The translations under genes were made by a program, and so were the position numbers. Positions 1 to 14,491 of a DNA stretch of 14,491 nt are shown one piece after another; position 1 is the first letter of the stretch; every line of letters starts with the position of its first letter. Under the pieces are notes generated by a model. The model saw only the letters and a list, made by a program, of their open reading frames with translations. It had not been told where the DNA came from and made no database searches. The stretch is from the UHGV virus genome UHGV-0168752; one strand, given 5' to 3'. The DNA comes from a virus.

Positions 1-5
1 ATTTA

Positions 6-25
6 GTTAAGTGAGAATTCTCACA
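6..25 (-). promoter_or_regulatory. Operator-like palindromic element, copy 1 (GTTAAGTGAGAATTCTCACA)
   Basis: Perfect 14-bp palindrome GTGAGAATTCTCAC at 11-24. A near-identical 20-mer recurs at 5999-6018. Lies in the intergenic region downstream of the CDS ending at 61, i.e. upstream of whatever minus-strand gene lies beyond the window start. Confidence 0.4.
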
Positions 26-60
26 TAGATGAAATATATCTTAAATTTTTTAGACAATTA

Positions 61-369
61 TCAGCATAGCGCGATGTTAACCGACTTACCAGGTAGCGGG
101 AAATGCTGTAGTTCTATTGACTGAAGTTTCCTGTCAATAGTCAGTATTTCATCAACGTTGGGCGTAAGGCGGAATACAGCGCGAGGTAGCGTGAAGGACA
201 CGTTCGTCGAGCAGTTATTTAACAGTAACTGATCCTGAGAATAATCAATCTCTACCACTCTCGCAATTACCCAACGATCGCGAATCTCGCCACCTAGAGG
301 AGCAGCTAATGCACGTTGCAAGCGCTGTAAATTAGTCCCATCAGTATTAGTGTGGTTTTGGCTCGACAT
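61..369 (-). CDS. Hypothetical protein (about 102 aa from the ATG)
   Basis: ORF track 61..381 begins at a TTG; the first ATG is at 369..367 (MSSQNHTNTDG...). Overlaps the upstream CDS end by about 23 nt. No recognisable motif. Confidence 0.5.
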   Translation of the reverse strand: MSSQNHTNTDGTNLQRLQRALAAPLGGEIRDRWVIARVVEIDYSQDQLLLNNCSTNVSFTLPRAVFRLTPNVDEILTIDRKLQSIELQHFPLPGKSVNIALC

Positions 370-682
370 AAGTTTCCCCAAACACGTATACGTGTTCAGT
401 CACGTATGCAGATTCTGTTTCAAGCGTCGGTTTAGCGACACGCCACTTCCATGCGCCGGTTTCAGGATCTTGCCAGGACAACAAAAGAGAACCCTCGCAA
501 ATTTCAGAGGTATCGACCTCAGGGTGGAACAACATGAATTCGTTTTCGTTGTCGTCCACTACGACGAATTGGCCTTCTTCTACCCTTTCGAACTTAGCAA
601 CACCTACTACAGTTGCTGGTTCTCCAACAGTAAACACCATTTCTTGTTTCGGTAAATCACGGTGAATCGCACTTAACCACAT
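347..682 (-). CDS. Hypothetical protein (111 aa)
   Basis: ATG at 682..680 preceded by GAGGA about 9 nt upstream on the minus strand; first gene after the terminator at 738-776. No recognisable motif. Confidence 0.6.
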   Translation of the reverse strand: MWLSAIHRDLPKQEMVFTVGEPATVVGVAKFERVEEGQFVVVDDNENEFMLFHPEVDTSEICEGSLLLSWQDPETGAWKWRVAKPTLETESAYVTEHVYVFGETYVEPKPH

Positions 683-737
683 TTAAGCTGTTCCTCAATT
701 AATTTTGTTTACGTGTGCATAATTAGACACGAAAGCG

Positions 738-776
738 TAAAAATAAATTCACCCTCTCCCCAAGCGGAGAGAGGGA
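738..776 (-). terminator. Rho-independent terminator
   Basis: GC-rich hairpin (plus-strand arms 752-761 and 766-775, loop AAGC, one mismatch) followed on the minus strand by TGAATTTATTTTTAC; sits just 3-prime of the CDS ending at 781. Confidence 0.65.
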
Positions 777-780
777 AAGT

Positions 781-1287
781 TTACAGTACGTTTTCGTCGC
801 GATCGTCTACTAAAATAGATGTAATTACATAACGTGCTAAACGACTGCGTGCTTCTTCAGTTTCTTCTTCAGAAGGTAGCTGCTCACCTGCGGGTGCGCA
901 CAAGGTTAGTCCAGATTCACGAAGTTGTTCGGTATAGTCTTCCACAGCTGTGTCGAACGTACCACGGATACCTGCTACTGCGTCCATAATTTCGTCATTC
1001 GGAATAATGGATTCTTTTAGCACAGCGTGCGCGTCTGTAGGCTCCACCATTTGTAGATTCTGTTCTACCAGCATCGCCTGTTTCGCTAGGCTGTCGGTGA
1101 TAAAGCAAGACAGAATCTTTTCGAAATCGTCTAACGAGAATTCGGTGTCTTCAGATGCACCGGTAATCAATTGCCCGTAGCGATTAAAGAATTCTTTACA
1201 ACGTGTTTCGTAGTCAGCTTCTAAGTCGCGAACGCCGAGATCAAAATCGTGCTGCTCCAGCTGATTAAAATCCAGAGTCTCTTTCAT
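781..1287 (-). CDS. Strongly acidic hypothetical protein (168 aa); candidate DNA-mimic or anti-restriction protein
   Basis: ATG at 1287 with GGAGA upstream. By my count about 39 Asp/Glu versus about 14 Lys/Arg, including a PSEEETEEA cluster. Last gene of the Dam operon. Confidence 0.7.
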   Translation of the reverse strand: MKETLDFNQLEQHDFDLGVRDLEADYETRCKEFFNRYGQLITGASEDTEFSLDDFEKILSCFITDSLAKQAMLVEQNLQMVEPTDAHAVLKESIIPNDEIMDAVAGIRGTFDTAVEDYTEQLRESGLTLCAPAGEQLPSEEETEEARSRLARYVITSILVDDRDENVL

Positions 1288-1325
1288 CTCTAAGTCTCCA
1301 GTTAAGAGGTCATATTACCTGCTGG

Positions 1326-1553
1326 CTAGAGTGCCAACGTTAACCCGGTATGGGTTTGTACTGAACCAACACCATCGCGTGCTTTTGCTTTGGCGATGAG
1401 TTTGTCAATCACGCGCTGATGGCTACGAGTAATGACTTTACCTGGATAACCGATAATTAGCGCGTTCTCATCATTAATTACCGCCGAGAATTCATTATCG
1501 CCTGCGACGTAAGTAATCTTTTTGTCTTTGGTTACAATACGTTTGATTTCCAT
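1326..1553 (-). CDS. Small hypothetical protein (75 aa)
   Basis: ATG at 1553 with AAGGA 6 nt upstream; starts immediately after the stop of the preceding gene. Confidence 0.6.
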   Translation of the reverse strand: MEIKRIVTKDKKITYVAGDNEFSAVINDENALIIGYPGKVITRSHQRVIDKLIAKAKARDGVGSVQTHTGLTLAL

Positions 1554-1562
1554 TCATTGTCC

Positions 1563-2336
1563 TTAAAAGATAAAATGGCCAGTTAGTGCTTCTACTTCAA
1601 CACCAGACATTGCTGGAGGTGCTGAGTATGGAAAAGTAAGACGCACGGTTGCACCCTTTAAATACGCAATACGGTAGTATGTGGTCAAGAGCGCAATCCC
1701 GTAAGTACAGTCGTTATAGAAGAAACCTTCGGTTGCAAACGTCTTTTCGTTGATTTTCGAATAGACTAAGATACCTTCAACTTTACCGTCTTTACGACAG
1801 CACAGCCCTTCAGCAGCCCCAATAGCTAACAATCCCAGGCAGTATGTATCCAAACTGACATTAACCACCTTAGGAATCGTAAACGTTTCTTCTAACGTTA
1901 GAGATTCAATATCAACTACATCAGGTAAATCGGTGCGAACTTCGGGTTCTTCAGTAAACGTCAGGTCATAGTCGATGGACGTCGGCTGCATACCCAAATA
2001 CGCCATTAACTGGTCACGACGTTTTAGGTCGTTGGCAGGGTATGTGACATCAAACATCTCCACTTTTAACAAACGTTTGAGTTGTGCGAAATTAATTTTC
2101 TTCTTCGCAAACACAACGATTGCCGACATGTAGAAAAACTTACCATCGGCACGACCGGAGAAGATTCCTTGTAGCTGATTCGTGTTCGAAAGAATGATAA
2201 AGGTCGGATCTTCAGACTCGCGAATGACGTCCTTTTCCAATAACCCTTTCCGTACACGGGTTAGTGAAACCATTTTCCCGTCCACGCCAATTGCTAAATG
2301 GTCATTACGATAATCGTGGATATCCACTATGCGCAT
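1563..2336 (-). CDS. Hypothetical protein (257 aa), translationally coupled to Dam
   Basis: ATG overlaps the Dam stop (TAATG at 2334-2338). No motif I recognise. Confidence 0.7.
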   Translation of the reverse strand: MRIVDIHDYRNDHLAIGVDGKMVSLTRVRKGLLEKDVIRESEDPTFIILSNTNQLQGIFSGRADGKFFYMSAIVVFAKKKINFAQLKRLLKVEMFDVTYPANDLKRRDQLMAYLGMQPTSIDYDLTFTEEPEVRTDLPDVVDIESLTLEETFTIPKVVNVSLDTYCLGLLAIGAAEGLCCRKDGKVEGILVYSKINEKTFATEGFFYNDCTYGIALLTTYYRIAYLKGATVRLTFPYSAPPAMSGVEVEALTGHFIF

Positions 2337-3151
2337 TAGAGCACTCCCAGTAATTCAGTCACTGTTTTCCGAGCGGCACCGGACGCACCCATATAGCGAC
2401 CGACCTCAATACTACGCCACTCAAAACCGTAATAAATTTCTCGGGTGAGTAGGGTGTCTGCATTTGACAACACGACACTGTTGCCACGTTCCACCTGCTG
2501 CTGTAGTAACTTGGCTAATTCTCGATGATCCGTTTGTGAGAATTCTTTACGGTGGTATTGCGCATGTTTCGCGGTATCCGATAACGGAATATAAGGAGGA
2601 TCGGCATAAATCACGGCATCCTCAGGTGTCCGCGCCAGTACGGAACGAAAGTCTTCACAAACGATTTCCAAATAATCCACTTCTGCGCAACGTTTAGCCC
2701 AGTCTCGAATTTCTTCTAACGGGTAATAAACACCGTTCGGGTAACGTCCAAACGGAACATTGAACCCACCACTACTGTTATAGCGACACATCCCGTTATA
2801 GCCGTGACGCATTAAGTATAAAAACATCGCTGCCCGTTCAACGTCTGACATCGATTTACCGCTATTAAACAGCTCACGACGTTCCATATACCTTACTGTA
2901 GTATTACCGTCTAAGAACAATGGCTGAGACGCAGCAATCAGTTCTTCAGGTTGTTCACGTGCAACACAGAGTAAGCGTATCAGATCAGGGTTAGAATCTG
3001 ATAGAATATACCGGCTATAATTCGTATTTAGGAAGACAGAGCCTGCACCCACAAACGGTTCTACAAACGTTGTACGTTTAGGTAAGACCTTTTGTAATTC
3101 TCCTAAAACACGGGTTTTCCCACCCATCCATTTAATAATCGGTTTCCGCAT
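2336..3151 (-). CDS. dam: DNA adenine (N6) methyltransferase, Dam family
   Basis: Translation has KWMGGK near the N-terminus, FVEPFVGAGSVF (SAM-binding FxGxG), NGMCRYNSSGGFNVPFGRY and the catalytic DPPY, colinear with E. coli Dam and T4 Dam as I recall them. Confidence 0.9.
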   Translation of the reverse strand: MRKPIIKWMGGKTRVLGELQKVLPKRTTFVEPFVGAGSVFLNTNYSRYILSDSNPDLIRLLCVAREQPEELIAASQPLFLDGNTTVRYMERRELFNSGKSMSDVERAAMFLYLMRHGYNGMCRYNSSGGFNVPFGRYPNGVYYPLEEIRDWAKRCAEVDYLEIVCEDFRSVLARTPEDAVIYADPPYIPLSDTAKHAQYHRKEFSQTDHRELAKLLQQQVERGNSVVLSNADTLLTREIYYGFEWRSIEVGRYMGASGAARKTVTELLGVL

Positions 3152-4130
3152 TATATCCGCCTTGTAACGATGACACTTCGTCGCCTAACACTAATTCGAC
3201 CCGGTTTTTCCGACGCTCCCAGCTGACAACATCATCGTCGCGTACTAAAACAAATTCGTATTCGTAGGGACGGAATTTAAACAAATCTACGGCTAGGTGT
3301 CTAAATGCAGGGTTGTTATTGTAACACCCTATTTCTAATGGCGCTGCCGTGGTCGATGCAATCTGTAAAGCACGATACAACAAGGCACGGCCAATCCCAC
3401 GACCACGATGCGTTTCACTTACCGCAATGGCTTTTAATTCACACTCGTTGAGATTACGCAATTTGACTTGAACCACACCCACAACGTCATTACCGTCCAT
3501 CCAAACGTAGGTGTGGTGATTGATGTGACGTACTAACTCCACCAACGTTTCGACTTGTGGCATGATTTGCCGAGAACGGCCTACAGGGTCAGCATTGATG
3601 TTTTCAACAACACTGGTACCCAACAACAGCATAAGTTGTTCACGTTGTGCAGCGTTTAAATCTTTATAAAGATCGCCAGAAATATTCTTCACGTTCGTCG
3701 GTAATGTAACATCCAATAACGTACGTGTCCCTAAGCGGTATGAGGTCTGTGTATGCCTAAATCCGAAGTCATTAAGCTCAGCAATTTCTTCCACGCCTCT
3801 GGCAATTCGATTGAGGTATGTAAAACCAGTATAGTCCAGTACCAGTAAAAGGTTCAGTTTGTTCAAACACCCTGGTACAATTTCGTGCATATACAAGCAG
3901 TGTAACGTTGGGTCACCGTAAATATGTTTTGTGATGATAAACCCTTGAATCGTTTTTCCTTTTTGTAAAGAGAACGTATTCAGCTCAGTATTACACAACG
4001 CCTCGCGAATCACAGCACCGTTAGGACCCGTTAAACATGCCTGAAGTTGGGGATTACGAATATCTCTTCGTGCTAAGCGTCCTACGGTTAAATCCAGAGC
4101 GGTACGTTCTATAGTCTTCCTAAAAGCCAT
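3132..4130 (-). CDS. GNAT-domain acyltransferase-like protein with N-terminal extension (332 aa; possibly tandem GNAT)
   Basis: C-terminal region contains VSETHRGRGIGRALLYRA, matching the GNAT motif A signature (R-x-x-G-x-G/A). AAGGAG 8 nt upstream of the ATG at 4130. The 3-prime end overlaps the Dam start by 20 nt. Confidence 0.7.
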   Translation of the reverse strand: MAFRKTIERTALDLTVGRLARRDIRNPQLQACLTGPNGAVIREALCNTELNTFSLQKGKTIQGFIITKHIYGDPTLHCLYMHEIVPGCLNKLNLLLVLDYTGFTYLNRIARGVEEIAELNDFGFRHTQTSYRLGTRTLLDVTLPTNVKNISGDLYKDLNAAQREQLMLLLGTSVVENINADPVGRSRQIMPQVETLVELVRHINHHTYVWMDGNDVVGVVQVKLRNLNECELKAIAVSETHRGRGIGRALLYRALQIASTTAAPLEIGCYNNNPAFRHLAVDLFKFRPYEYEFVLVRDDDVVSWERRKNRVELVLGDEVSSLQGGYNAETDY

Positions 4131-4180
4131 GTTAATTGCTCCTTAAAAGGTCGTCTCAAAACAATACGCTAAAGCTGTAA

Positions 4181-4216
4181 AAACAAAAAAAAAGAAAGGG
4201 GAACCGAAGTTCCCCC
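4181..4216 (-). terminator. Rho-independent terminator
   Basis: Perfect 7-bp stem GGGGAAC/GTTCCCC (4198-4204 and 4209-4215) with a 4-nt loop (TTCG on the minus strand), followed on the minus strand by TTTCTTTTTTTTTGTTTTT. Confidence 0.8.
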
Positions 4217-4223
4217 GTAATAG

Positions 4224-4811
4224 TTAACCGAACAGTTTACGATGTAAATGGGGGAACCAATTACATATTTCCTTTTTGTAGTTCCGTCCGGTTTTATCCC
4301 AATCGTCTTCTTTGAACAGACTTTCGTCAAAATTCAGATACGATTCGAATTGTTTGTTGAGCATGGTATGTTGCTCTGGAAAACGTACCAGAATTACCGC
4401 GTCCTTTTTATCGAGTGTTTGGACATTCAGAACTTCTGGCGTAAACTTGAAGTAAGCGTTCGCGTCCACCCGTAACCAGTTGGCAAGGCAGATAACATCT
4501 TGTTCGAGCTGGTTCAATATTTCGAACACGTCAGAATCGGGCGCTTCCATGGTTAAACGTAGTAGTAACTTTAACAAATCGTTACCGCTCAGCAAGTCGT
4601 AATGATGTCGTCCTGAGGTGAGACTCACGAGTTCGCCTTCCCATAGCCAGGCCATAAAGTGACAGTTGAAGGGACGGTAGTGATAAATCCGACACTCGCT
4701 AAAAGGACTCAATTTAAGGGTGAGAATAGGGTCTGCTAAAGCGTGTAGCGTGACTGGTGGGAAGATCGCTTTAGGAAACGTAGTGTCTTCTGGTAAGGTT
4801 TCTGTTGCCAT
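4224..4811 (-). CDS. Hypothetical protein (195 aa), co-transcribed with the XRE regulator
   Basis: ATG at 4811 with AGGAG 9 nt upstream. No recognisable motif. Confidence 0.7.
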   Translation of the reverse strand: MATETLPEDTTFPKAIFPPVTLHALADPILTLKLSPFSECRIYHYRPFNCHFMAWLWEGELVSLTSGRHHYDLLSGNDLLKLLLRLTMEAPDSDVFEILNQLEQDVICLANWLRVDANAYFKFTPEVLNVQTLDKKDAVILVRFPEQHTMLNKQFESYLNFDESLFKEDDWDKTGRNYKKEICNWFPHLHRKLFG

Positions 4812-4881
4812 GATTTTTACTCCTGAAATGGTTTGTCGAAAGCACCGAAAAGTTTGGTAACGGGCTGATCTCCAATTAATC

Positions 4882-5232
4882 TTAGAAGCCCAGTGTTTGT
4901 TTAAATACGTTGCTGAGGTAGCTTGGTTTTGTCGCCTTGACGTAATCTAACGCGGACTCTGCGGTTACCTTAACCACACAACGTCCGTTAGTGGACTCAA
5001 ACGTCACGCTGTATTTCAAACGTAACATGTCGGCAACTTTCATTATCATTCCCAGACTTAAACGTTCTGGATGTTCGTTCGCAATTGAAGAAATCACCGA
5101 TGGGGAAACTTTCGCAAGCTGGGCCAATTCACGTTGAGTGATTTTACCACGTTGTAAATGGCGAATGATATAACCCAGACGAATAACTAACTGCTGTTTT
5201 GCAATAGTGACGGTGTTATGTTTGTAAGCCAT
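4882..5232 (-). CDS. XRE-family helix-turn-helix transcriptional regulator (116 aa)
   Basis: N-terminal ITQRELAQLAKVSPSVISSIAN fits the Cro/CI-type HTH pattern. AGGAG 8 nt upstream of the ATG at 5232. Confidence 0.7.
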   Translation of the reverse strand: MAYKHNTVTIAKQQLVIRLGYIIRHLQRGKITQRELAQLAKVSPSVISSIANEHPERLSLGMIMKVADMLRLKYSVTFESTNGRCVVKVTAESALDYVKATKPSYLSNVFKQTLGF

Positions 5233-5304
5233 GGTTATACTCCTTTAGGTTAACAAGTCGGTGTAAAGAGTTAATCGCAACTCTCACTTAAGTAATATCT
5301 ATCT

Positions 5305-5344
5305 GTGAAAAAATAAAATACAGGTACCACCTAACGGTGGTACC
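5305..5344 (-). terminator. Rho-independent terminator
   Basis: Perfect 9-bp stem GGTACCACC/GGTGGTACC (5323-5331 and 5336-5344), 4-nt loop, followed on the minus strand by TGTATTTTATTTTTTCAC. Confidence 0.8.
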
Positions 5345-5351
5345 TAAGCAG

Positions 5352-5975
5352 TTAGTTTGCTAAAATGTGTGTAACAATCTCTGCCGCTTTTAAACGGTAG
5401 TCATCGTTCTGCGTTACACGTTGTAAAGTGTGCAGGCAGCCTCCTTCCGTCAAGATATGGTGTGCGAAACGGTAGTAGTCACGCAACGCGTCCCAACTGG
5501 TTTCGTCTTTCAGGTACTTAGCCGTAAGTACCTCATCGTCCCAATTCTTACCTTGTTCTTCTACCCGTTTCTTAAAACGCTCCGTAGCCGTTGTATAGTC
5601 AACATCCAACCACACGTAGAGATCCGGCGCGTGGTAGTGACGAGTTACCTTGCGTCGGAACACCGCATCCTTCCCATCGGTACCTTGGTAAACGATCGTC
5701 GACGGGCAAAAACGGTCAAAGATAACCACGTCGTAGTCGTCAACCACGTTATCCATTGTGTAAATAAAATCCAGACACATCGCGTCGGCTATTCTGTCTT
5801 TTGAAGCAGCCTGCACCACCAGACTGCGTGCGCGAATACCCGCGTCCGTTTCAGACGTTGGATGATTTCGAACGCAGACTTTTAATCCTAGCGATTCCAA
5901 CATCGCTTTTACCATTTTACACAATGTAGATTTCCCAGAAAAGTCAGGGCCATCAATAGACACGGTCTTAAGCAT
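5352..5975 (-). CDS. tmk: Thymidylate kinase-like dNMP kinase (207 aa)
   Basis: P-loop IDGPDFSGKST, DRF motif in VIFDRFCPSTIVYQG (compare the E. coli Tmk DRH...QAYQG region) and a LID-like region DLYVWLDVDY...ERFKKR. Confidence 0.8.
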   Translation of the reverse strand: MLKTVSIDGPDFSGKSTLCKMVKAMLESLGLKVCVRNHPTSETDAGIRARSLVVQAASKDRIADAMCLDFIYTMDNVVDDYDVVIFDRFCPSTIVYQGTDGKDAVFRRKVTRHYHAPDLYVWLDVDYTTATERFKKRVEEQGKNWDDEVLTAKYLKDETSWDALRDYYRFAHHILTEGGCLHTLQRVTQNDDYRLKAAEIVTHILAN

Positions 5976-5998
5976 TATTGTTTTACCTTTTTACGCAC

Positions 5999-6018
5999 GT
6001 TAAGTGAGGATTCTCACA
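5999..6018 (-). promoter_or_regulatory. Operator-like palindromic element, copy 2 (GTTAAGTGAGGATTCTCACA)
   Basis: 19 of 20 identical to copy 1. Lies between the terminator at 6045-6082 and the tmk start at 5975; the upstream flank TATCAT resembles TTTCAT at copy 1 (a possible -10 element). Confidence 0.45.
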
Positions 6019-6044
6019 ATGATAGTATCGGTTGTAATAATTTA

Positions 6045-6082
6045 CGATAAAAAAGAAACCCGCCCCTACCATTCGGTAGGGG
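6045..6082 (-). terminator. Rho-independent terminator
   Basis: Perfect 8-bp stem CCCCTACC/GGTAGGGG (6063-6070 and 6075-6082), 4-nt loop, followed on the minus strand by CGGGTTTCTTTTTTATCG. Confidence 0.8.
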
Positions 6083-6089
6083 TAAGGTT

Positions 6090-6695
6090 TTACTGGTGGT
6101 CGACAATCGGCTCGCTCCACGTGGTTACCGGTTCCGGCGTACGCAGATTTTGCGTTTGTGCTGACGTTACACACAACAACACTAAACCTTGTCGTGCCAG
6201 ATAATGTTGCATTCTGGCTGCTTCCACGGGAGTGTCAACAATAACGAGCTCAGCGCGCCGTAGCAACGCTAAAGCAGCTTGACCTTCTTGTGGTGTGGTT
6301 AAAGCATCAGAGTCGTCCAGAATGCGTTTAAGGCGGTTATACGCCATCCCGGTTACATTACTCCGACCTGCGCGAAGATCAACAACCATATCGTTATATT
6401 CTCCTACCACCTGTTGCGTCGAGTTTGGATAAAACCGAAACGCAGCACGACGACGTTTACGACGCACCTCAGAAATCGCGCGTTGTAAAACCAACAGTAC
6501 GTATTTCGGTGCAGCTTCACTGTTTGGACGGCGCATCTTTGCTAAACGCGCCGCCAAATCCAAAACTTTCGTTAATGGGTAGCGGTGTTTAAACCCTTCG
6601 CGTTCGATGGTGACACCCCGCTTAGGAAGCTTACCTGTTTTGTTGATATACGACACCGTAATCAGTAGTAATGAATCGAGAATCATCTCTGACAT
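6090..6695 (-). CDS. Hypothetical basic protein (201 aa)
   Basis: ATG at 6695 with GAGGG upstream. Arg-rich segment EVRRKRRRAAFRF. No confident family assignment. Confidence 0.65.
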   Translation of the reverse strand: MSEMILDSLLLITVSYINKTGKLPKRGVTIEREGFKHRYPLTKVLDLAARLAKMRRPNSEAAPKYVLLVLQRAISEVRRKRRRAAFRFYPNSTQQVVGEYNDMVVDLRAGRSNVTGMAYNRLKRILDDSDALTTPQEGQAALALLRRAELVIVDTPVEAARMQHYLARQGLVLLCVTSAQTQNLRTPEPVTTWSEPIVDHQ

Positions 6696-6709
6696 TACAA
6701 CACCCTCTC

Positions 6710-7081
6710 TTAGAACCCCTCGAGAACAGCTTTCACAAATTCGTAAACCGTGCGGCGGTGTTCTTCAAGCGGATAACCAAACTTCGCATAATCGTCGTTC
6801 CAGACAATCGGATAAAGATCGCCTCCACAACTCAGATACCCTTTACGTAGCAGATAATAATCCAGCCCAACTCTAAAATTTAAAGACAGGCTGCCTTGTT
6901 TACTGCATACGTGCAACTGAATCGATTTCACACCGTCGTGTGTTGGCGTTTCAATCGTTTCTGCATACAATACATCCGAGCAACCTTCTAGTGTGCTAAC
7001 GACGTCTCTAAGGTTGTTATTGGCGTCGATGGTTGCGGCACGAAGCGCGTCGGTGTATTGCTGAAGTTCTCGATGGAACAT
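6710..7081 (-). CDS. Hypothetical protein (123 aa)
   Basis: ATG at 7081 with AGGAGA about 9 nt upstream; the start lies 94 nt inside the preceding CDS in another frame. Confidence 0.55.
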   Translation of the reverse strand: MFHRELQQYTDALRAATIDANNNLRDVVSTLEGCSDVLYAETIETPTHDGVKSIQLHVCSKQGSLSLNFRVGLDYYLLRKGYLSCGGDLYPIVWNDDYAKFGYPLEEHRRTVYEFVKAVLEGF

Positions 7082-7620
7082 CCTGCTAATCTCCTGTCTC
7101 TACCGTAAGGCAGAGGAAATGCTTTGTGTTCGAACTCTACCACAACATAAGCCGGGTAGAACAAAAGGTATTTATAAAACGTTGCCAACGTTACGTCTTT
7201 CGGGGTCGCCAGAAAATAATTAAGGTCGGGTGCGTCAGGAAATGCAAAATACAACCCTGTATAAATCTGACCGTTATACAACCCATTAAACGGTGTCACT
7301 ACACACTTCGGATGGGTGGGTTCGACGTGTAACCATCGACTACCGACGTGATAGACGCCCCGTAACGTGCCATTTCGGGTCTTCCCTAAATAACGACAAC
7401 GGATATTCTTTTCCCATGCGCTACGCTGGGTTGGAGAACCGCGCTGGACAAAACGACTTAACGCTTCGGGTGTAAAGTAATCAAAAATGGCTGTGGGTAA
7501 ATACCAACACGTTTTATCGATTCGTACCACTCTCCAGCCAGGACGAAAACCTACAGCGTAACGCTCTACACCAAAAGTATATCTAGACCCGTCGTGAAAC
7601 GGTACGAACCTTGCGCTCAT
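6988..7620 (-). CDS. Hypothetical protein (210 aa)
   Basis: ATG at 7620 with AAAGGAAAT upstream, 1 nt after the GNAT stop. Aromatic-rich; no recognisable motif. Confidence 0.65.
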   Translation of the reverse strand: MSARFVPFHDGSRYTFGVERYAVGFRPGWRVVRIDKTCWYLPTAIFDYFTPEALSRFVQRGSPTQRSAWEKNIRCRYLGKTRNGTLRGVYHVGSRWLHVEPTHPKCVVTPFNGLYNGQIYTGLYFAFPDAPDLNYFLATPKDVTLATFYKYLLFYPAYVVVEFEHKAFPLPYGRDRRLAGCSIENFSNTPTRFVPQPSTPITTLETSLAH

Positions 7621-7621
7621 T

Positions 7622-8092
7622 TTAGATTTCCTTTATCATTTCCCTGCACTCTGTACGAAAACCCATTTTCTCGTACACACTGATGGCTTTAATGTTATTG
7701 TCCAACACATCTAAAGACATCCAGCCACAACCCTTAGATTTTCCGTAGTCACGGACTTTATCCATAAGGGCACGACCGACCCCTTGTGAGCGCGCTTCCT
7801 CTAATACATAGTAATTCCCAATATAGACGAAGTTGTCTTTAGCACAGGAACCCAACGAGAACGTCATAAACCCTAAGAGAGTATCGTTATCGTCAACGGC
7901 GCACGCACACAGATAATCTTGTGGCCAAATCTCTTCCAGTCGTTCTATCGGGTTAAAGGTATCACGACCGGTGAGTTGGCTGATACGCACTTTCTCTTCA
8001 GCGAATAAGTGGTTATGTAAACGTAATACGTCAGCACCGTAACGTTTACCGTATTTACTGTCGGGTTTAAGGATAATAAAGACGCGCATCAT
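7622..8092 (-). CDS. GNAT-family N-acetyltransferase (156 aa)
   Basis: Motif A RSQGVGRALMDKV followed by AISVYEKMGF, typical GNAT core. Start overlaps the upstream stop (ATGA). Confidence 0.8.
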   Translation of the reverse strand: MMRVFIILKPDSKYGKRYGADVLRLHNHLFAEEKVRISQLTGRDTFNPIERLEEIWPQDYLCACAVDDNDTLLGFMTFSLGSCAKDNFVYIGNYYVLEEARSQGVGRALMDKVRDYGKSKGCGWMSLDVLDNNIKAISVYEKMGFRTECREMIKEI

Positions 8093-9222
8093 TTAACCTC
8101 GACTAATGATAAACGGCACCACTCCAGCAACCCTTCTGCAACGCGCACTAATGCGGTTGTGAAAGCGTCCTCTAAACGTAGTGCATTTTTATAACGCACC
8201 GTAGCATCACGTAACTCACGTCCTTCAAGCGATTTGAGTTCTTTGCGCATACGTTGAATTTCGTCATAAATTCCCGTATACCCAACACTGCGACGTTTTG
8301 TGCCACGCTGACGTAAGGCACGAATAATGCGATCTACGGCTTCTAACGCCTTACCAATCTCGTGTAAGTTCAACGATTTAATGGTATCTCCGTAATCACC
8401 GTCGCGCGCAATCGCCCATTCGATTTTACCATTCTGATGCTCAACCACAACCACGTTACCCGGCCACGGATACGCTTTTACAGATTTAAAAGGATCGATA
8501 ATGCCAAGTAAGCCTGCGCTTCGCTTAATTGCCCAGCTCGTAGAACGACCTACTCTTTCTAATCCGCTTTCGGTAACTTTCTTACTCTTACCGATAATCG
8601 TACGCGTTTTAACCGTGTACTCGTTAACCATCCCATCGATAGCGTTCAAGTTCTTACTGAAATCAATACACGCTTCAACATTCGGTTTGTCTTCTAAACA
8701 AACTTTTGTTGTCCAGCTTCCTGTTTCACAGTCACGTGGTTTTAACGTGTCTTTGTCACCAATTAAACTTAAGCGTGAATTTAACTTCTGTAGCTTGCGT
8801 TCTAACGACGCGGCTTTGGACGTTGCTTCTTTCAGTTCATTAATGACTTCTTTACCGGCAGCTTCCGCGAAATCGACAAAACGTAACGCCAGTTGCTTAG
8901 AATGCTTACCTGCAAACTTACCAGACGCTTTGGCTCCTGCCACCGCCGCCTTTCCAGCAACCCGACCAACACCCTTAACCGCTCTACCTGCTGTTCGTGC
9001 TACCGCTTTACCTACCCCTGCATAGGGTTCCGTGTCCGCAACGAATTGTGCACGATCCATCATCGCTGCGGATTCCTGTGCGACCTGAATATCGTCTAAT
9101 GCCCAGCGTTTTCGGATAGCAACAACTGCTGGATAGTTATCTTTAACGTTAAGCGATTCTAAAGCGACTAATCGATCGTAGTCATCGCAAAGGACTTCTA
9201 AATCGGAATCTAATGTTGACAT
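8089..9222 (-). CDS. Hypothetical protein (377 aa) with a Lys/Ala/Gly-rich low-complexity segment
   Basis: ATG at 9222 with AAAGGA upstream. Internal segment AGVGKAVARTAGRAVKGVGRVAGKAAVAGAKASGKFAGK; the remainder looks helical and charged. Confidence 0.7.
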   Translation of the reverse strand: MSTLDSDLEVLCDDYDRLVALESLNVKDNYPAVVAIRKRWALDDIQVAQESAAMMDRAQFVADTEPYAGVGKAVARTAGRAVKGVGRVAGKAAVAGAKASGKFAGKHSKQLALRFVDFAEAAGKEVINELKEATSKAASLERKLQKLNSRLSLIGDKDTLKPRDCETGSWTTKVCLEDKPNVEACIDFSKNLNAIDGMVNEYTVKTRTIIGKSKKVTESGLERVGRSTSWAIKRSAGLLGIIDPFKSVKAYPWPGNVVVVEHQNGKIEWAIARDGDYGDTIKSLNLHEIGKALEAVDRIIRALRQRGTKRRSVGYTGIYDEIQRMRKELKSLEGRELRDATVRYKNALRLEDAFTTALVRVAEGLLEWCRLSLVEVK

Positions 9223-9244
9223 CCTTTACCCCATTTAAGCTAAA

Positions 9245-9260
9245 GCGGGGAGAAGCCCGC
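9245..9260 (-). terminator. Weak hairpin, possible attenuator or leaky terminator
   Basis: 5-bp GC stem (9245-9249 and 9256-9260) with a poor T tract on the minus strand; lies between the SLOG-like gene and the 377-aa gene. Confidence 0.3.
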
Positions 9261-9271
9261 CCTGACTAACT

Positions 9272-9820
9272 TCATAATAAGCGCAGGTCTTCTAGCCACT
9301 TACTTGCATCGGTGGTGTGATAATAACAAGGAATATTCAACGTCTGCGCATAACGAACACCCATTGCCGTCCCACCTTTCGGATTTCCCTTTTTATCGTG
9401 CGGTGCGTAGTAATAGACAGCATCTACGTGATCGTCTAAAGTGTCGCCGGATACAATATTTAAGTTTCGTCCATGCAGCGCCCAAGCAATATCCGATAGT
9501 TTATCAGGATTAGGATGAAGTGAAGCCACAATCCCACGATAACGAATGTCTTGAGGAATAACACGAAACTCTACGTTTGGGTGTAACTTACGTAGCCACA
9601 ACTTACGTTCGTCAGGTAAATAGCAAATATGCGAAGCTGGTTCAGTACGCGCCAACATAAATTGTAATTGGTCTGGTCCTTTATAACAACCACCTGAACG
9701 TGTTTCGATAGTGTGTTGTTTATTACGAAGAATTTTAAACCCACGTTGCAACACGTCCAGCATTTCTTGCATTGTGTCTTCGGGAGTTTCTCGAGAACCG
9801 ATAATAGCAATTTTATACAT
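9272..9820 (-). CDS. SLOG/DprA(Smf)-like Rossmann-fold protein (182 aa)
   Basis: N-terminal IAIIGSRE, then SGGCYKGPD, and C-terminal GGTAMGVRYAQTLNIPCYY, resembling the GSR...SG.A.G.D...GGT pattern of DprA/LOG-type SLOG domains. GGAGGTGA upstream of the ATG. Confidence 0.5.
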   Translation of the reverse strand: MYKIAIIGSRETPEDTMQEMLDVLQRGFKILRNKQHTIETRSGGCYKGPDQLQFMLARTEPASHICYLPDERKLWLRKLHPNVEFRVIPQDIRYRGIVASLHPNPDKLSDIAWALHGRNLNIVSGDTLDDHVDAVYYYAPHDKKGNPKGGTAMGVRYAQTLNIPCYYHTTDASKWLEDLRLL

Positions 9821-9848
9821 TTGTCACCTCCATACTGAGGTCGTAAAG

Positions 9849-9894
9849 TGAAAAAAAAAATAAAATAGGAGAGAACCTCAAAAGGTTCTCTCCT
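9849..9894 (-). terminator. Rho-independent terminator
   Basis: 10-11-bp stem GGAGAGAACC/GGTTCTCTCC (9868-9877 and 9884-9893), 6-nt loop, followed on the minus strand by a T tract (plus-strand A run 9849-9866). Confidence 0.85.
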
Positions 9895-9907
9895 AACGTT
9901 ATCGTTA

Positions 9908-10543
9908 TCACTCTAATCCACTTAATACCACAGTTTCGAGTAACGCTTTACCCATCCATACATCCAACTCACCGTCTAAGTCCGCCAACGGGCGTTTATT
10001 CAGCTCATTGTTATAGTCGAGTCCATCGAGCGTTCTGTTTGTAATAATTTGGCCTAAATGTAGTGGCAGGATAAATCGATTTCTCGCACTATAAATAAAC
10101 GAATCACATTCGTAAACCACTGCGTACCGCTCGATATCTTCATCGTACTCAATATGGCATTGAGAACCGGTGTCCCACGCACGCGACAGAACCATACCAC
10201 GGTCCTGACACATCTTCTCCACCGCTACCTTCGCGGATGCACTCCACGTATCGTAGTTCTTTGGTTGACCGTTTTCGAAATCGAACCATTCCAGATACTT
10301 GGCAGGAATCTCAAGGAAGTCGTTTAACTGAAGCTTTGTGTAAGTTATCATTACCGCATCGTTAATGTCGTTACGGTTGGTTAACTTTACTTTATACCGG
10401 CCTTCCGGGGTGGGCGCACCTATTAAAGAAACATCCACTTTCTCAGCCGAAAGCTTTTTACGTACACTGTCACTGTTACAATAACTGACAAGATTGAGTA
10501 AGTTCTGTCTGTGGCCAACTTCGAAATCAATTACAAAAGACAT
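9908..10543 (-). CDS. Hypothetical protein (211 aa)
   Basis: ATG at 10543 with GGAG 7 nt upstream. No recognisable motif. Confidence 0.7.
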   Translation of the reverse strand: MSFVIDFEVGHRQNLLNLVSYCNSDSVRKKLSAEKVDVSLIGAPTPEGRYKVKLTNRNDINDAVMITYTKLQLNDFLEIPAKYLEWFDFENGQPKNYDTWSASAKVAVEKMCQDRGMVLSRAWDTGSQCHIEYDEDIERYAVVYECDSFIYSARNRFILPLHLGQIITNRTLDGLDYNNELNKRPLADLDGELDVWMGKALLETVVLSGLE

Positions 10544-10565
10544 ACAAACTCCGTGGGGTTAATCA

Positions 10566-10958
10566 CTAATACCCGTATAAGGGATACCGTGCAGTGATTT
10601 CATCACCCGCATAAAAGGTTAAACGTTGAATATTGATGTTTTTATTTGTGTAAGGTACAGTTTCTAACGTCACCTTCACGGTTGCAGAACAGCTTCCAGG
10701 ATCAACAAATTGGTACGTGCGCCGTTTGATGTTTACCAAATAGAAACCGCCTGCGGGACACAATTCGGTTTTACCGTAATTTACCACAGCAAATTCATCA
10801 TTCTGAACTGCGACGATAGGCTGGTCACCGGGTTTAAAAACCACAGGTTTATCGCCAGGTACGGTCGGTTCAAAACGACTAATGTCGTGCGGCTTAAATT
10901 CTGCCATTGCAGAAAATGAAAGTGACGTTAGAAATAGAGTAATAACAAAACGTTTCAT
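10566..10958 (-). CDS. Secreted/periplasmic small protein with N-terminal signal peptide (about 130 aa)
   Basis: True start is the ATG at 10958 overlapping the upstream TGA (TGATG); the track's 10961 start is a TTG. MKRFVITLFLTSLSFSAMA-EF looks like a Sec signal peptide with an AMA cleavage site. Confidence 0.7.
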   Translation of the reverse strand: MKRFVITLFLTSLSFSAMAEFKPHDISRFEPTVPGDKPVVFKPGDQPIVAVQNDEFAVVNYGKTELCPAGGFYLVNIKRRTYQFVDPGSCSATVKVTLETVPYTNKNINIQRLTFYAGDEITARYPLYGY

Positions 10959-11434
10959 CAATCTACCTCATCAAGATAATCACGCAGCCAAGGCATCGTT
11001 TCTAAACGAGGAATCATGTTCCGCGTATTCGGCGAAAACCATAACGCGTCGTGATATTTCTTTTTGAAACGTTCCCAGTTATACGAGAAAGGTTTGGGTG
11101 TAAAACCGCGTTCTTTTAACACCTCTTCCCAAACTAAGTCTTTAATGAAATCATCCACTAATAGTAGTACCAACACTTTCCACTTACTGCGACGAAAGTG
11201 TCGGGTAAAACATTTGCGGAGTTCTGAAAAGTCTTCTCGTTGACTGGAACGTACTGCTGGAATTGCTTTCTCTTTATACTGCGAACAAGGATTATGCTGT
11301 AATATCGTTACAGGAACACCCCGAACGCGACCTGTGCGTAGATCAAGCTCGTGAACGGGGATAACCTCAACACAACGTAATACTTTTGCTTTATTGCCTT
11401 CCAAGTACCGCGTCTCATACTCGACACGAATCAT
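10958..11434 (-). CDS. Hypothetical protein (158 aa)
   Basis: ATG at 11434. Basic, Trp-rich; no recognisable motif. Confidence 0.65.
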   Translation of the reverse strand: MIRVEYETRYLEGNKAKVLRCVEVIPVHELDLRTGRVRGVPVTILQHNPCSQYKEKAIPAVRSSQREDFSELRKCFTRHFRRSKWKVLVLLLVDDFIKDLVWEEVLKERGFTPKPFSYNWERFKKKYHDALWFSPNTRNMIPRLETMPWLRDYLDEVD

Positions 11435-11454
11435 TTTGGGCTCTCAACTGTTTT

Positions 11455-11934
11455 TTAATAAATCTTATCCGCAACAGAGAGAAAGATGGGGGTGTTTTCA
11501 ATAAAGTCCACCAAATATCCTTCTTCCGGCGGGGCGTATGACGAATCAACGTTACCGTTCGTCATACGAAAATACCGACGAGAGTCACTGGCAATAAACC
11601 AACGGTCTATTTGGTAGCCCTTTTTGGAAAAGAAACACAAGCCGTCAATGTTTGAAGGATGGACACGACACATCACTATTTGGCGGTCAGAATTAAGTTG
11701 AACGTACTTCAGTAAGAAAGAACCTACGCCGCTACGACGAGAACCTTCAGCAACTACTAAATAAATAAGATTCCCTGGTTCCCAGATTGCAATTCCGTGA
11801 GTAATATCATCTTCAACGGCTAACGTGATCCTAACCGGTGTTTCCCGGATTGAATTTAAGTCTTTAATGTATTCACGTAATTCAGGAAATTTAGCGGAGA
11901 TTTTATCTTCGGTAATATCTAACTGTTGCATCAT
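11455..11934 (-). CDS. GNAT-like acetyltransferase (159 aa), tentative
   Basis: LVVAEGSRRSGVGSFLLKYV matches the GNAT motif A pattern R-x-x-G-x-G. Start overlaps the upstream stop (TAATGATG). Confidence 0.5.
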   Translation of the reverse strand: MMQQLDITEDKISAKFPELREYIKDLNSIRETPVRITLAVEDDITHGIAIWEPGNLIYLVVAEGSRRSGVGSFLLKYVQLNSDRQIVMCRVHPSNIDGLCFFSKKGYQIDRWFIASDSRRYFRMTNGNVDSSYAPPEEGYLVDFIENTPIFLSVADKIY

Positions 11935-12584
11935 TATTCCCCAATAGCCAAAACATTTTTAACAAATTCGTCCCAGGTGGTTTTATCACCAGAAGTGAGT
12001 AAACGATCGAAAGGTACGGTTCGGTGTACTGGTAAAATACTTTCTAGTTTCGGCGCAGGTACGGAACTCCAAAGAGCATAACCGAATAACGTCTCTAACG
12101 TCTTGCGTTTATTATCGAGAATAGGGACAAACCATTTGAACTGGACGAAGTTAGCGCCACGACATTTTTTTATCTCGGCAACATAACCATGGTCCATCAA
12201 ACGTGCTTCTATACCATTGTCCGCAAGTGTATAAAGACCGTACTCTGAAAGTAGTCTACGTAATTGTTTATTCAACTCTATTTGGTAAGCAATGAGCTCG
12301 TCAGACTTTACGAAAACACGCCCACTGTTAAGACCTATACCTTTTTGTTCCAGGTGTTGCGCCATTAAAGCAGAAGCACTTCCTTCAACACCAGGTAAAT
12401 CCAGTGCGCCAGTCATCGGTATCGTTTTATAAAGGCGATACACGTTTTCCTGGAAAGCGGCAATAACGATTTCGTTGACTTTTAAGAAGTCAACAAGTTC
12501 CCCATTAGAAGCACATAATGGGACAACCTTTAATCGGCTAATAGGGATCAGTAAAGTTCTTGTCATTAAACGCAAAGGTTCCAT
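11934..12584 (-). CDS. Hypothetical protein (216 aa from the ATG)
   Basis: The track start at 12608 is a GTG; the ATG at 12584 (MEPLRL...) has a strong AAGAGGAGA 7 nt upstream, so I place the start there. First gene after the terminator at 12625-12664. Confidence 0.7.
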   Translation of the reverse strand: MEPLRLMTRTLLIPISRLKVVPLCASNGELVDFLKVNEIVIAAFQENVYRLYKTIPMTGALDLPGVEGSASALMAQHLEQKGIGLNSGRVFVKSDELIAYQIELNKQLRRLLSEYGLYTLADNGIEARLMDHGYVAEIKKCRGANFVQFKWFVPILDNKRKTLETLFGYALWSSVPAPKLESILPVHRTVPFDRLLTSGDKTTWDEFVKNVLAIGE

Positions 12585-12624
12585 TGGTAATCTCCTCTTT
12601 AGACTCACACTATGTTTAAAAATT

Positions 12625-12664
12625 GTAAAAATAAAAAGAAGAAACCTCTACCCGAAGGTAGAGG
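12625..12664 (-). terminator. Rho-independent terminator
   Basis: Perfect 8-bp stem CCTCTACC/GGTAGAGG (12645-12652 and 12657-12664), loop TTCG on the minus strand, followed by TTTCTTCTTTTTATTTTTAC. Confidence 0.8.
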
Positions 12665-12670
12665 TTAATG

Positions 12671-13249
12671 TTATTTCGTTGTTGTGCTTTCTGTCTTCGA
12701 CTTAAGCTGGCCTGATTTCTCAAGCTTTTTCTCAACAACTTTCGTAGCGATTTCAAGGGACTTATACGCCAGCGTCTTAATCGGCCACGTGGCGAATACC
12801 ACCAACGCAAAGAACGGGACTAAACATACCAGTAAAACATCTAAACTGTCTTCTGGGAAATGTTGGTGGGTATCATAACCCAGGAACCCCGTTACGGCTA
12901 CAGTTGCCAGGGTCAGCAGAAAGATAATGAATTTCTGCGCGCCAGATAACTTCGGCCACAACGTTAGCATGGTTTCTTTGCTGATCTCATCCCCTAAAGA
13001 TTCCACAGCATCCGTCGCTTGCTGATGGAACTGCTCTGACAGTTTACCTAAATTATCAATCAGCGTTGGACGTAGGTCAGAGAGAATTTTCGTACCCGAA
13101 CGGGTAACATCAACATTGACTTCATCCCCGTACGCCGCTTTCAACAATTTCGTTAACTGCTCAGACTGTTCCTTACTTAACTTTCTGTTTCCAGCTTGAA
13201 TCAACAAGTCAAGTATTTCAGTAGGTAGCGTCTGTGTGTTTGGTTCCAT
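12671..13249 (-). CDS. Membrane protein with two predicted transmembrane helices (192 aa)
   Basis: Hydrophobic stretches FIIFLLTLATVAVTGFLGY and VLLVCLVPFFALVVFATWPI. Start overlaps the RuvC-like stop (TAATG). Confidence 0.7.
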   Translation of the reverse strand: MEPNTQTLPTEILDLLIQAGNRKLSKEQSEQLTKLLKAAYGDEVNVDVTRSGTKILSDLRPTLIDNLGKLSEQFHQQATDAVESLGDEISKETMLTLWPKLSGAQKFIIFLLTLATVAVTGFLGYDTHQHFPEDSLDVLLVCLVPFFALVVFATWPIKTLAYKSLEIATKVVEKKLEKSGQLKSKTESTTTK

Positions 13250-13893
13250 TAACGTTTCCTCCGACGCCTTCTCCGCCTGGAGGTCTTCGGCGACTTTTGT
13301 TTAGGCGGTAGCAGGCTGTTTAAATTTAACAGATTTACCCTGACGAAAATGTTTCCCACCGCCACGGCATCGATGCTATGCTCGTCTAACGTTGTAATAT
13401 CAAACAAAGCGTGTTCACGATACAGTTTGGTCACGGCCCGAAACATATCGGTTTTATCCGTTCCCTTTGCTTCCACACCAACGAATGATTTTACAATGAT
13501 AGGATTGAAACCGTGTAAGATTTTCTCCGGGTAAATGTCCCACAGGGCACGTCGCAACATCAGCTGTAATTCAACACCTGATTCGTACGCGGAGAGTTTT
13601 GCTCTCCGCATAAACGGGGTTTCTGTTGCAACGAAGGTTGGGCAAGCAATCCGAAGAAATTCACGGTAACAAGCTTCGAGCTTAACGAGTCGATCGTCAC
13701 GTTTACCGACACACTCTGCGAACGCATTTGGATGCGTTGGGTCTAATACATGCATGGTATCAGCCCAAACTACTTCGGCTTGATCGCTGCCGTATTCCCA
13801 ATCCAATACCGCCATACCAAGATGGCTCGTACCGGGGTCTATTGCCGCGATTCTCACCATCTTATCTGGAAGTCTCGGCTCGGGTATCAACAT
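13249..13893 (-). CDS. RuvC-like Holliday junction resolvase with Arg-rich C-terminal tail (214 aa)
   Basis: IAAIDPGTSHLGMAV (compare RuvC ILGIDPGSRVTGYGV), FVATETPFMRR (compare FAIEQVFMAK) and DEHSIDAVAVG (compare DAADALAIA). C-terminus SRRRRRRRKR. Start overlaps the upstream stop (TAATG). Confidence 0.8.
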   Translation of the reverse strand: MLIPEPRLPDKMVRIAAIDPGTSHLGMAVLDWEYGSDQAEVVWADTMHVLDPTHPNAFAECVGKRDDRLVKLEACYREFLRIACPTFVATETPFMRRAKLSAYESGVELQLMLRRALWDIYPEKILHGFNPIIVKSFVGVEAKGTDKTDMFRAVTKLYREHALFDITTLDEHSIDAVAVGNIFVRVNLLNLNSLLPPKQKSPKTSRRRRRRRKR

Positions 13894-14448
13894 TAATTCG
13901 CTGTCCCCAGGAAGAACGGCGCAGGCTGACCGATACGAATGGTCAGTGACAGTTTATCATTCGTCTGCGCCAGGTTAGTAAACATCGAGATGTAATACAG
14001 CGCCTGGACACCAATCGCTTCGGTGTAACTGAACTTAGACCCAGTTGCGGAATCACCCGACGTGACTTGGTCTAACCCGGAGCAGAGTGCCAGTTCGGAG
14101 ATAATCGAACTACGCGGACTACCGCGCATGATACTCGTCACGTTCATGTATTCCTGAACATCAAAATCCGTCCACGGAATCACCAGGTCAGCACCGGATT
14201 CAACATAACGACCATCAGGAATCGCAACGGTACCGTCATCATCATAATCGTAATCCGGCAATACTTTCGGTACCGGGTTCAATTCTGTATCGGTGTACAC
14301 GAAGTCTTCGACGGTCTCAACACCGTTCTCACGTTTGATATCGTAGTCTGACGTTTTAACCGCGCGCATATCGATGCGTTTTAAGTAATACGCCCAGTAT
14401 TCACGCTTGTTAAACGTTTCCAAAGTACGGAAAGCGTAGTTCTTACGC
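13893..14448 (-). CDS. Hypothetical protein, 5-prime truncated (C-terminal about 185 aa only)
   Basis: Open frame runs into the adapter at 14449; the apparent N-terminus MCIRDRR is translated adapter, so the real start lies beyond the contig end. No recognisable motif in the remainder. Confidence 0.6.
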
Positions 14449-14491
14449 CTGTCTCTTATACACATCTGACGCTGCCGACGACTCCTTACGT
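14449..14491. other. Illumina Nextera adapter (sequencing artefact)
   Basis: CTGTCTCTTATACACATCT (Tn5 mosaic end) followed by GACGCTGCCGACGA (reverse complement of TCGTCGGCAGCGTC), then 8 nt CTCCTTAC and GT. From memory the 8-mer is the reverse complement of a standard i5 index and GT begins the P5 complement. Confidence 0.95.

Follow-up and report, generated by a model that had tools for sequence, protein, structure and literature searches.

The window examined here, a stretch of phage DNA of 14,491 nt, ends in 43 nt (14449–14491) which supply the start codon of an open reading frame on the minus strand, and the question raised by this locus is whether these bases, and the N-terminus which they encode, belong to the phage. 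The initial annotation had read them as Illumina Nextera adapter, and this reading was borne out at every base: on the plus strand the stretch is identical, in 43/43 positions and with a catalogued index included, to the reverse complement of the Nextera i5 library adapter (Table 1). It is considered practically certain that these bases are Illumina Nextera adapter left untrimmed and that the phage genome never contained them. Nothing in the sequence speaks against this reading.

Table 1. Coordinates of the adapter parts, the truncated gene and the gene calls at the end of the window
Feature	Position	Strand	Remarks
Tn5 mosaic end (ME), CTGTCTCTTATACACATCT	14449–14467	+	exact 19/19; transposase-added part, faces outward
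Read-1 tail, reverse complement of TCGTCGGCAGCGTC	14468–14481	+	i5 PCR-primer landing site
CTCCTTAC, reverse complement of i5 index N505 (GTAAGGAG)	14482–14489	+	N505 oligo sequence
GT, first two bases of reverse-complemented P5 (GTGTAGATCTCGGTGGTCGCCGTATCATT)	14490–14491	+	part order in i5 oligo
Genuine 3' two-thirds of the predicted DUF7208 virion structural protein gene	13893–14448	-	codons 112–295 and stop
Artificial ATG inside the ME	14463–14465	-	opens the 190-aa ORF 13893–14465
Public-record gene call, 198-aa partial, VRSRRQRQMCIRDRR...	13893–14489	-	first 14 residues, VRSRRQRQMCIRDR, adapter-encoded

The first 33 nt of the stretch (plus strand, 14449–14481, CTGTCTCTTATACACATCTGACGCTGCCGACGA) are the exact reverse complement (33/33) of the 33-nt Nextera Read-1 transposase adapter TCGTCGGCAGCGTCAGATGTGTATAAGAGACAG, a sequence which has been given as the Tn5-A arm (PMC5861650). 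The window contains a single copy of it, and in 200 dinucleotide-preserving shuffles it did not occur even once with up to three mismatches; the same was found for the 19-nt ME taken by itself (single copy, 0/200 dinucleotide shuffles with three mismatches allowed). The remaining 10 nt (14482–14491), CTCCTTAC followed by GT, are the reverse complement of N505 and of AC, the last two bases of the P5 segment ending in ...GATCTACAC. When read on the minus strand from 14491 to 14449, the stretch consists of AC, GTAAGGAG, TCGTCGGCAGCGTC and AGATGTGTATAAGAGACAG, representing the end of P5, N505, the Read-1 tail and the ME, respectively. The i5 N505 primer is listed as AATGATACGGCGACCACCGAGATCTACAC-GTAAGGAG-TCGTCGGCAGCGTC in a published oligonucleotide table (PMC10730373), with this order also supported by the oligonucleotides of PMC5861650. 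No difference from the Illumina Nextera i5 adapter carrying N505 was found over the 43 nt, either in sequence or in the order of ME, Read-1 tail, index and P5; P5 is represented by only 2 nt because the contig stops there. The complete series of parts, with a catalogued index followed by P5, faces outward at the contig end, and it is missing at the homologous site of the relatives of this phage while being present in unrelated genomes.

Other library sequences were not found in the window, these being the TruSeq adapter AGATCGGAAGAGC (up to two mismatches) and the Nextera Read-2 adapter GTCTCGTGGGCTCGG (up to three mismatches). At the opposite contig end, no adapter was found in the first 180 nt and positions 1–60 of the window showed no obvious terminal feature. 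A tRNA scan and the local composition near the adapter-bearing end gave nothing notable.

The contig is predicted from sequence similarity to be part of an undescribed jumbo phage which is SPN3US-like and related to phiKZ, SPN3US being a Salmonella phage (Seoulvirus). Its nucleotide identity was approximately 74% to SPN3US and relatives and approximately 84% to the nearest IMG/VR contigs (L130 and L131), with about 8% of the window matched by megablast against GenBank phages. Besides the gene at the adapter-bearing end, the window was found to contain genes for a RuvC-like resolvase (13249–13893), two GNAT acetyltransferases and a thymidylate kinase, together with a faint phiKZ_IP match.

When the 198-aa edge-partial protein was looked up by exact sequence, one contig was found, ena:ERZ1026973:NODE_334_length_14491_cov_5.338529. 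The window is the entire SPAdes contig NODE_334 of ENA assembly ERZ1026973, with approximately 5x k-mer coverage (5.34), and the adapter therefore lies at a true contig end. Homology to all relatives, namely the SPN3US-like jumbo phages and four IMG/VR contigs, ends at 14447/14448. By megablast, the SPN3US-like phages gave matches of 1 kb or more which stop at window positions 14438–14452, in most cases at 14447 (the remainder were short internal matches and, in one set of results, matches to the adapter itself). The four IMG/VR relatives are contigs of 151–225 kb which were found by a protein-seeded scan; blastn alignments to them (78–84% nucleotide identity) end between 14441 and 14448, with the loci of the relatives running 3 kb further. 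It was for this reason that the view of the window end as an assembly boundary was upheld: the window is a whole SPAdes contig, and its relatives continue in the middle of the gene.

At the junction (marked here by a slash) the relatives read ...GATTTGTCTGATGAACAG / CGTAAGAAC... (with the longer continuation / CGTAAGAACTACGC...), passing through the site mid-gene. The window reads ...GTGTATAAGAGACAG / GCGTAAGAACTACGC, with adapter replacing the continuing gene of the relatives; the end of its plus strand is ...GTAGTTCTTACGC / CTGTCTCTTATACACATCTGACGCTGCCGACGACTCCTTACGT, and the minus strand is ACGTAAGGAGTCGTCGGCAGCGTCAGATGTGTATAAGAGACAG / GCGTAAGAAC.... Base 14448 (G on the minus strand) corresponds to the last base of codon 111 (CAG, Gln) in two of the IMG/VR relatives (L128 and L129), which places the Tn5 cut between 14448 and 14449. 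An exact DNA search of IMG/VR with the 33 genomic bases adjoining the junction gave no match.

The gene interrupted at this junction is predicted by homology to encode a 295-aa DUF7208 virion structural protein, orthologous to gp84 of SPN3US and homologous to gp139 of phiKZ. That the real gene is truncated, as had been proposed, is evident from its encoding only residues 112–295 of 295. The first 111 codons, approximately 38% of the gene, are absent and base 14448 is left as the orphan third base of codon 111. The missing ~333 nt would be expected to code for N-terminal residues resembling those of IMGVR_UViG_3300045988_095954 (MSNVKVYDGK...DLSDEQ). The window fragment matched PHROG 3315 (phrog_3315, E = 6e-73) at profile positions 111–289 of 295 with positions 1–110 missing, and this partial match likewise leads to a contig without the first 111 codons. 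Local alignment of the window protein with SPN3US gp84 gave 83% amino acid identity over gp84 residues 110–295, while the four IMG/VR relatives share 98–99% amino acid identity (99% for L128) with the fragment.

The full-length ortholog of L128 consists of 295 aa (MSNVKVYDGK...DLSDEQRKNYAF...), as does that of SPN3US. This L128 ORF belongs to Pfam family DUF7208 (PF23838; E = 1e-100, 337 bits against a cut-off of 27), a match measured on the L128 ORF, which is 99% identical to the window fragment; the fragment, with residues 112–295 only, does not represent a full-length DUF7208 protein. Against the PDB, the L128 ORF matched the PHIKZ139 structures 9xpg and 9xqd (E = 3e-34) and also 11lx, described as "virion structural protein" (E = 2e-34). 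SPN3US gp84 is annotated as "putative virion structural protein 10" (295 aa) and lies approximately 84 kb into the 240-kb genome, where it is flanked by gp83 and gp82 and, at its opposite end, by a RuvC-like gene. The gene order of the window agrees with that of SPN3US gp84–gp90. The window gene resembles SPN3US gp84/phiKZ gp139 (PF23838; 9xpg, 9xqd and 11lx) in being syntenic with a RuvC-like gene next to it, but differs in that the N-terminal 111 residues are lacking.

The adapter is open in the frame of this gene up to the contig end (VRSRRQRQMCIRDRR...) and contains an ATG; an ORF finder requiring a start codon therefore gives a false, seemingly complete 190-aa MCIRDR protein. An edge-aware gene caller would give a partial protein beginning VRSRRQRQMCIRDR, the form which is on the public record. 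The 190-aa ORF on the minus strand reads MCIRDRRKNYAF..., with MCIRD wholly encoded by adapter and R6 (AGG) made up of two adapter bases and genomic base 14448, while R7 (CGT, 14447–14445) is genuine phage sequence and represents residue R112 of the full protein. The adapter had been credited initially with the ATG and the whole of MCIRDRR, which holds for the ATG, for MCIRD and for two bases of R6, but not for the last arginine. The ORF 13893–14465 of the initial annotation is present in the window, but the public record carries the 198-aa partial protein instead, and an exact-sequence look-up did not find the ATG-started 190-aa protein on record.

It should be mentioned that a perfect Shine-Dalgarno-like AAGGAG is present within the N505 index (minus strand, 14482–14489, GTAAGGAG), separated by 16 nt from the adapter ATG at 14465. 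Its position upstream of this ATG is a coincidence and the spacing is rather long, although the motif could lift the score that a gene caller assigns to the fake start.

The same adapter was also detected in other records. Using the 43-mer as query, 28 GenBank phage records containing the 33-mer were found, the hosts of which include Vibrio, Acinetobacter, Bacillus, Paenibacillus, Listeria and E. coli. Many adapter sites in these records lie within approximately 250 nt of the record end, with others being internal (TAC1, WFK and P22H1). Within IMG/VR the 33-mer is present in at least 120 contigs; among the matches listed, 120 of the 121 sites are no more than 100 nt from the contig end and face outward, with a median of 13 nt past the 33-mer. 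The 8-mers which follow it at the 121 listed sites make up a small group of recurring sequences, which is what an index set would give, with CTCCTTAC occurring at 13 of the sites. Since at least 120 unrelated IMG/VR contigs end in outward-facing adapter, this is a property of library preparation and not of the genomes. This pattern of recurrence is that of a library-preparation contaminant and is incompatible with a conserved biological element. About half of 80 listed adapter-tipped IMG/VR contigs come from a single dataset (3300045988), to which three of the four contigs most closely related to this phage also belong. In Vibrio phage JSF5 the full layout can be seen, with genome followed by the 33-mer, an 8-nt index, P5 (GTGTAGATCTCGGTTGTCGCCGTATCATT) and poly-A, and the full P5 continuation after the same adapter was also found in Acinetobacter phage TAC1.

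The false start recurs together with the adapter. At the 121 listed adapter-tipped IMG/VR ends, the adapter ATG opens an MCIRD-beginning ORF in 20 cases when a minimum length of 60 aa is set, and in 12 when the minimum is 100 aa. Two deposited proteins were found to carry it: VUF54202.1 of Escherichia phage ev017 (LR597643.1, 49805–50035), a CDS annotated from the same adapter ATG and beginning MCIRDT, and VUF54226.1 of Lambda_ev066 (LR597653.1, 46495–46722), a partial CDS running through the adapter and reading LSLRRQRQMCIRDS... (...RRQRQMCIRDS). The artefact has therefore entered the protein databases under the label "hypothetical protein." Both are like the window ORF in that the same adapter ATG or frame is joined to the sequence beside a Tn5 cut; however, they are short hypothetical ORFs, whereas in the window the adapter-derived N-terminus is attached to a fragment of a real conserved gene. 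The initial annotation had described the peptide as a recognised contamination signature; the artefact does recur in IMG/VR and in GenBank CDSs, but no literature source for this description was found. No mention of "MCIRDR" was found in the literature searched, and the literature on adapter contamination, Nextera and public databases gave only routine mentions in methods; for this reason, "recognised signature" is not endorsed here as a fact of the literature.

The adapter also lies internally in several phage records deposited as complete genomes, and in at least two of them (TAC1 and WFK) it splits tail-fibre genes. In TAC1 (MK170160.1, 22575–22854), described as "complete genome," an internal inverted pair was observed, arranged as adapter-index-P5 and P5-index-adapter. 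This pair sits between TAC_0042 and TAC_0043, both annotated as "tail fiber protein," with ATCAGCTTTACC on both sides, and it looks like an adapter-mediated mis-join which splits one gene. An internal adapter in Escherichia phage vB_EcoM_WFK (MK373775.1, 149749–149782) is located at the point where the long tail fibre proximal subunit is broken into two pieces, and another in Peduovirus P22H1 (NC_049386.1, 1293–1329) is located within the annotated large terminase.

As to how the adapter came to lie at the end of this contig, an origin by read-through followed by a failure of trimming is proposed. Tn5 transposase would have cleaved between 14448 and 14449, joining the mosaic end to the phage DNA, with index N505 and P5 then being added by PCR. 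If the resulting library fragment was shorter than the read and sequencing started at its i7 end, the read would have continued beyond the insert through the Read-1 adapter, the index and P5, all as their reverse complement. The order found in the window, namely genome followed by reverse-complemented Read-1, i5 and P5, fits an i7-primed read with an insert shorter than the read, given the library structure that is derived from the oligonucleotides. The reads may have gone without adapter trimming or been trimmed incompletely, and SPAdes, at approximately 5x coverage and with no competing path, could have kept the read-through as the tip of NODE_334. The adapter length of 43 nt does not equal k-1 for any usual SPAdes k. 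The exact stopping point of the contig was probably set by read length or by partial trimming, with tip handling as a further candidate.

Other explanations for this end were also considered. The gene is interrupted exactly at a 19-bp element, as would be the case if a natural Tn5/IS50 transposon, or an engineered mini-Tn5, had truly inserted into the phage gene and the element were its end. The mosaic end derives from the ends of IS50; the natural Tn5 outside end, CTGACTCTTATACACAAGT, differs from it at 3 positions and the inside end at more. The 19-mer of the window, however, is the exact synthetic hyperactive mosaic end, its flank consists of the Illumina Read-1 tail, a catalogued index and P5 rather than transposon DNA, and the sequence ends 43 nt past the junction, at the contig end. 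No second end was found in the window with up to three mismatches. With a single end, an Illumina flank and no transposon DNA, the locus was not accepted as a natural IS50/Tn5 insertion, and the chance that such an insertion took place, natural or engineered, is regarded as vanishingly small. The location of the adapter at the very end of the contig would also be expected if this were a real physical terminus of the phage genome which had received adapter. This is judged to be highly improbable, given that the site falls in the middle of a conserved 295-aa gene, at a point which in SPN3US is approximately 84 kb into the 240-kb genome, that the four close relatives (contigs of 151–225 kb) read through it, and that the same outward-facing adapter is found on at least 120 unrelated IMG/VR contigs.

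The artefact could, in principle, be longer than 43 nt, for example where a chimeric read had joined unrelated DNA before the adapter. Reads bearing adapter can be chimeric, and internal adapter joins are seen in the deposited TAC1 and WFK genomes, but in the window colinear DNA and protein homology is unbroken up to 14447/14448 and the gene order agrees with SPN3US gp84–gp90, leaving a larger chimera very improbable. There is a similarly slight probability that the 43 nt were physically present in the sampled DNA, coming from a Tn5-tagged or engineered phage or from an earlier library which was carried over and tagmented again. The end would then represent a real molecule instead of a read-through artefact, but it would still be a laboratory product and not part of the biology of the phage.

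As untrimmed adapter, the 43-nt end is an assembly artefact of an ordinary kind rather than a feature of the biology of the phage, and the value of the finding is one of data hygiene only. It is recommended that the contig be trimmed to 1–14448, that the DUF7208 gene be annotated as 5'-partial and that the 14 adapter-encoded residues (VRSRRQRQMCIRDR) be dropped from the publicly recorded protein. If kept, the fake N-terminus can mislead analyses of start sites, signal peptides, clustering and domain boundaries, and the shared adapter can make false links between unrelated contigs. That the adapter is present in 28 GenBank phage records and at least 120 IMG/VR contigs may prove more useful in practice than the main finding itself.
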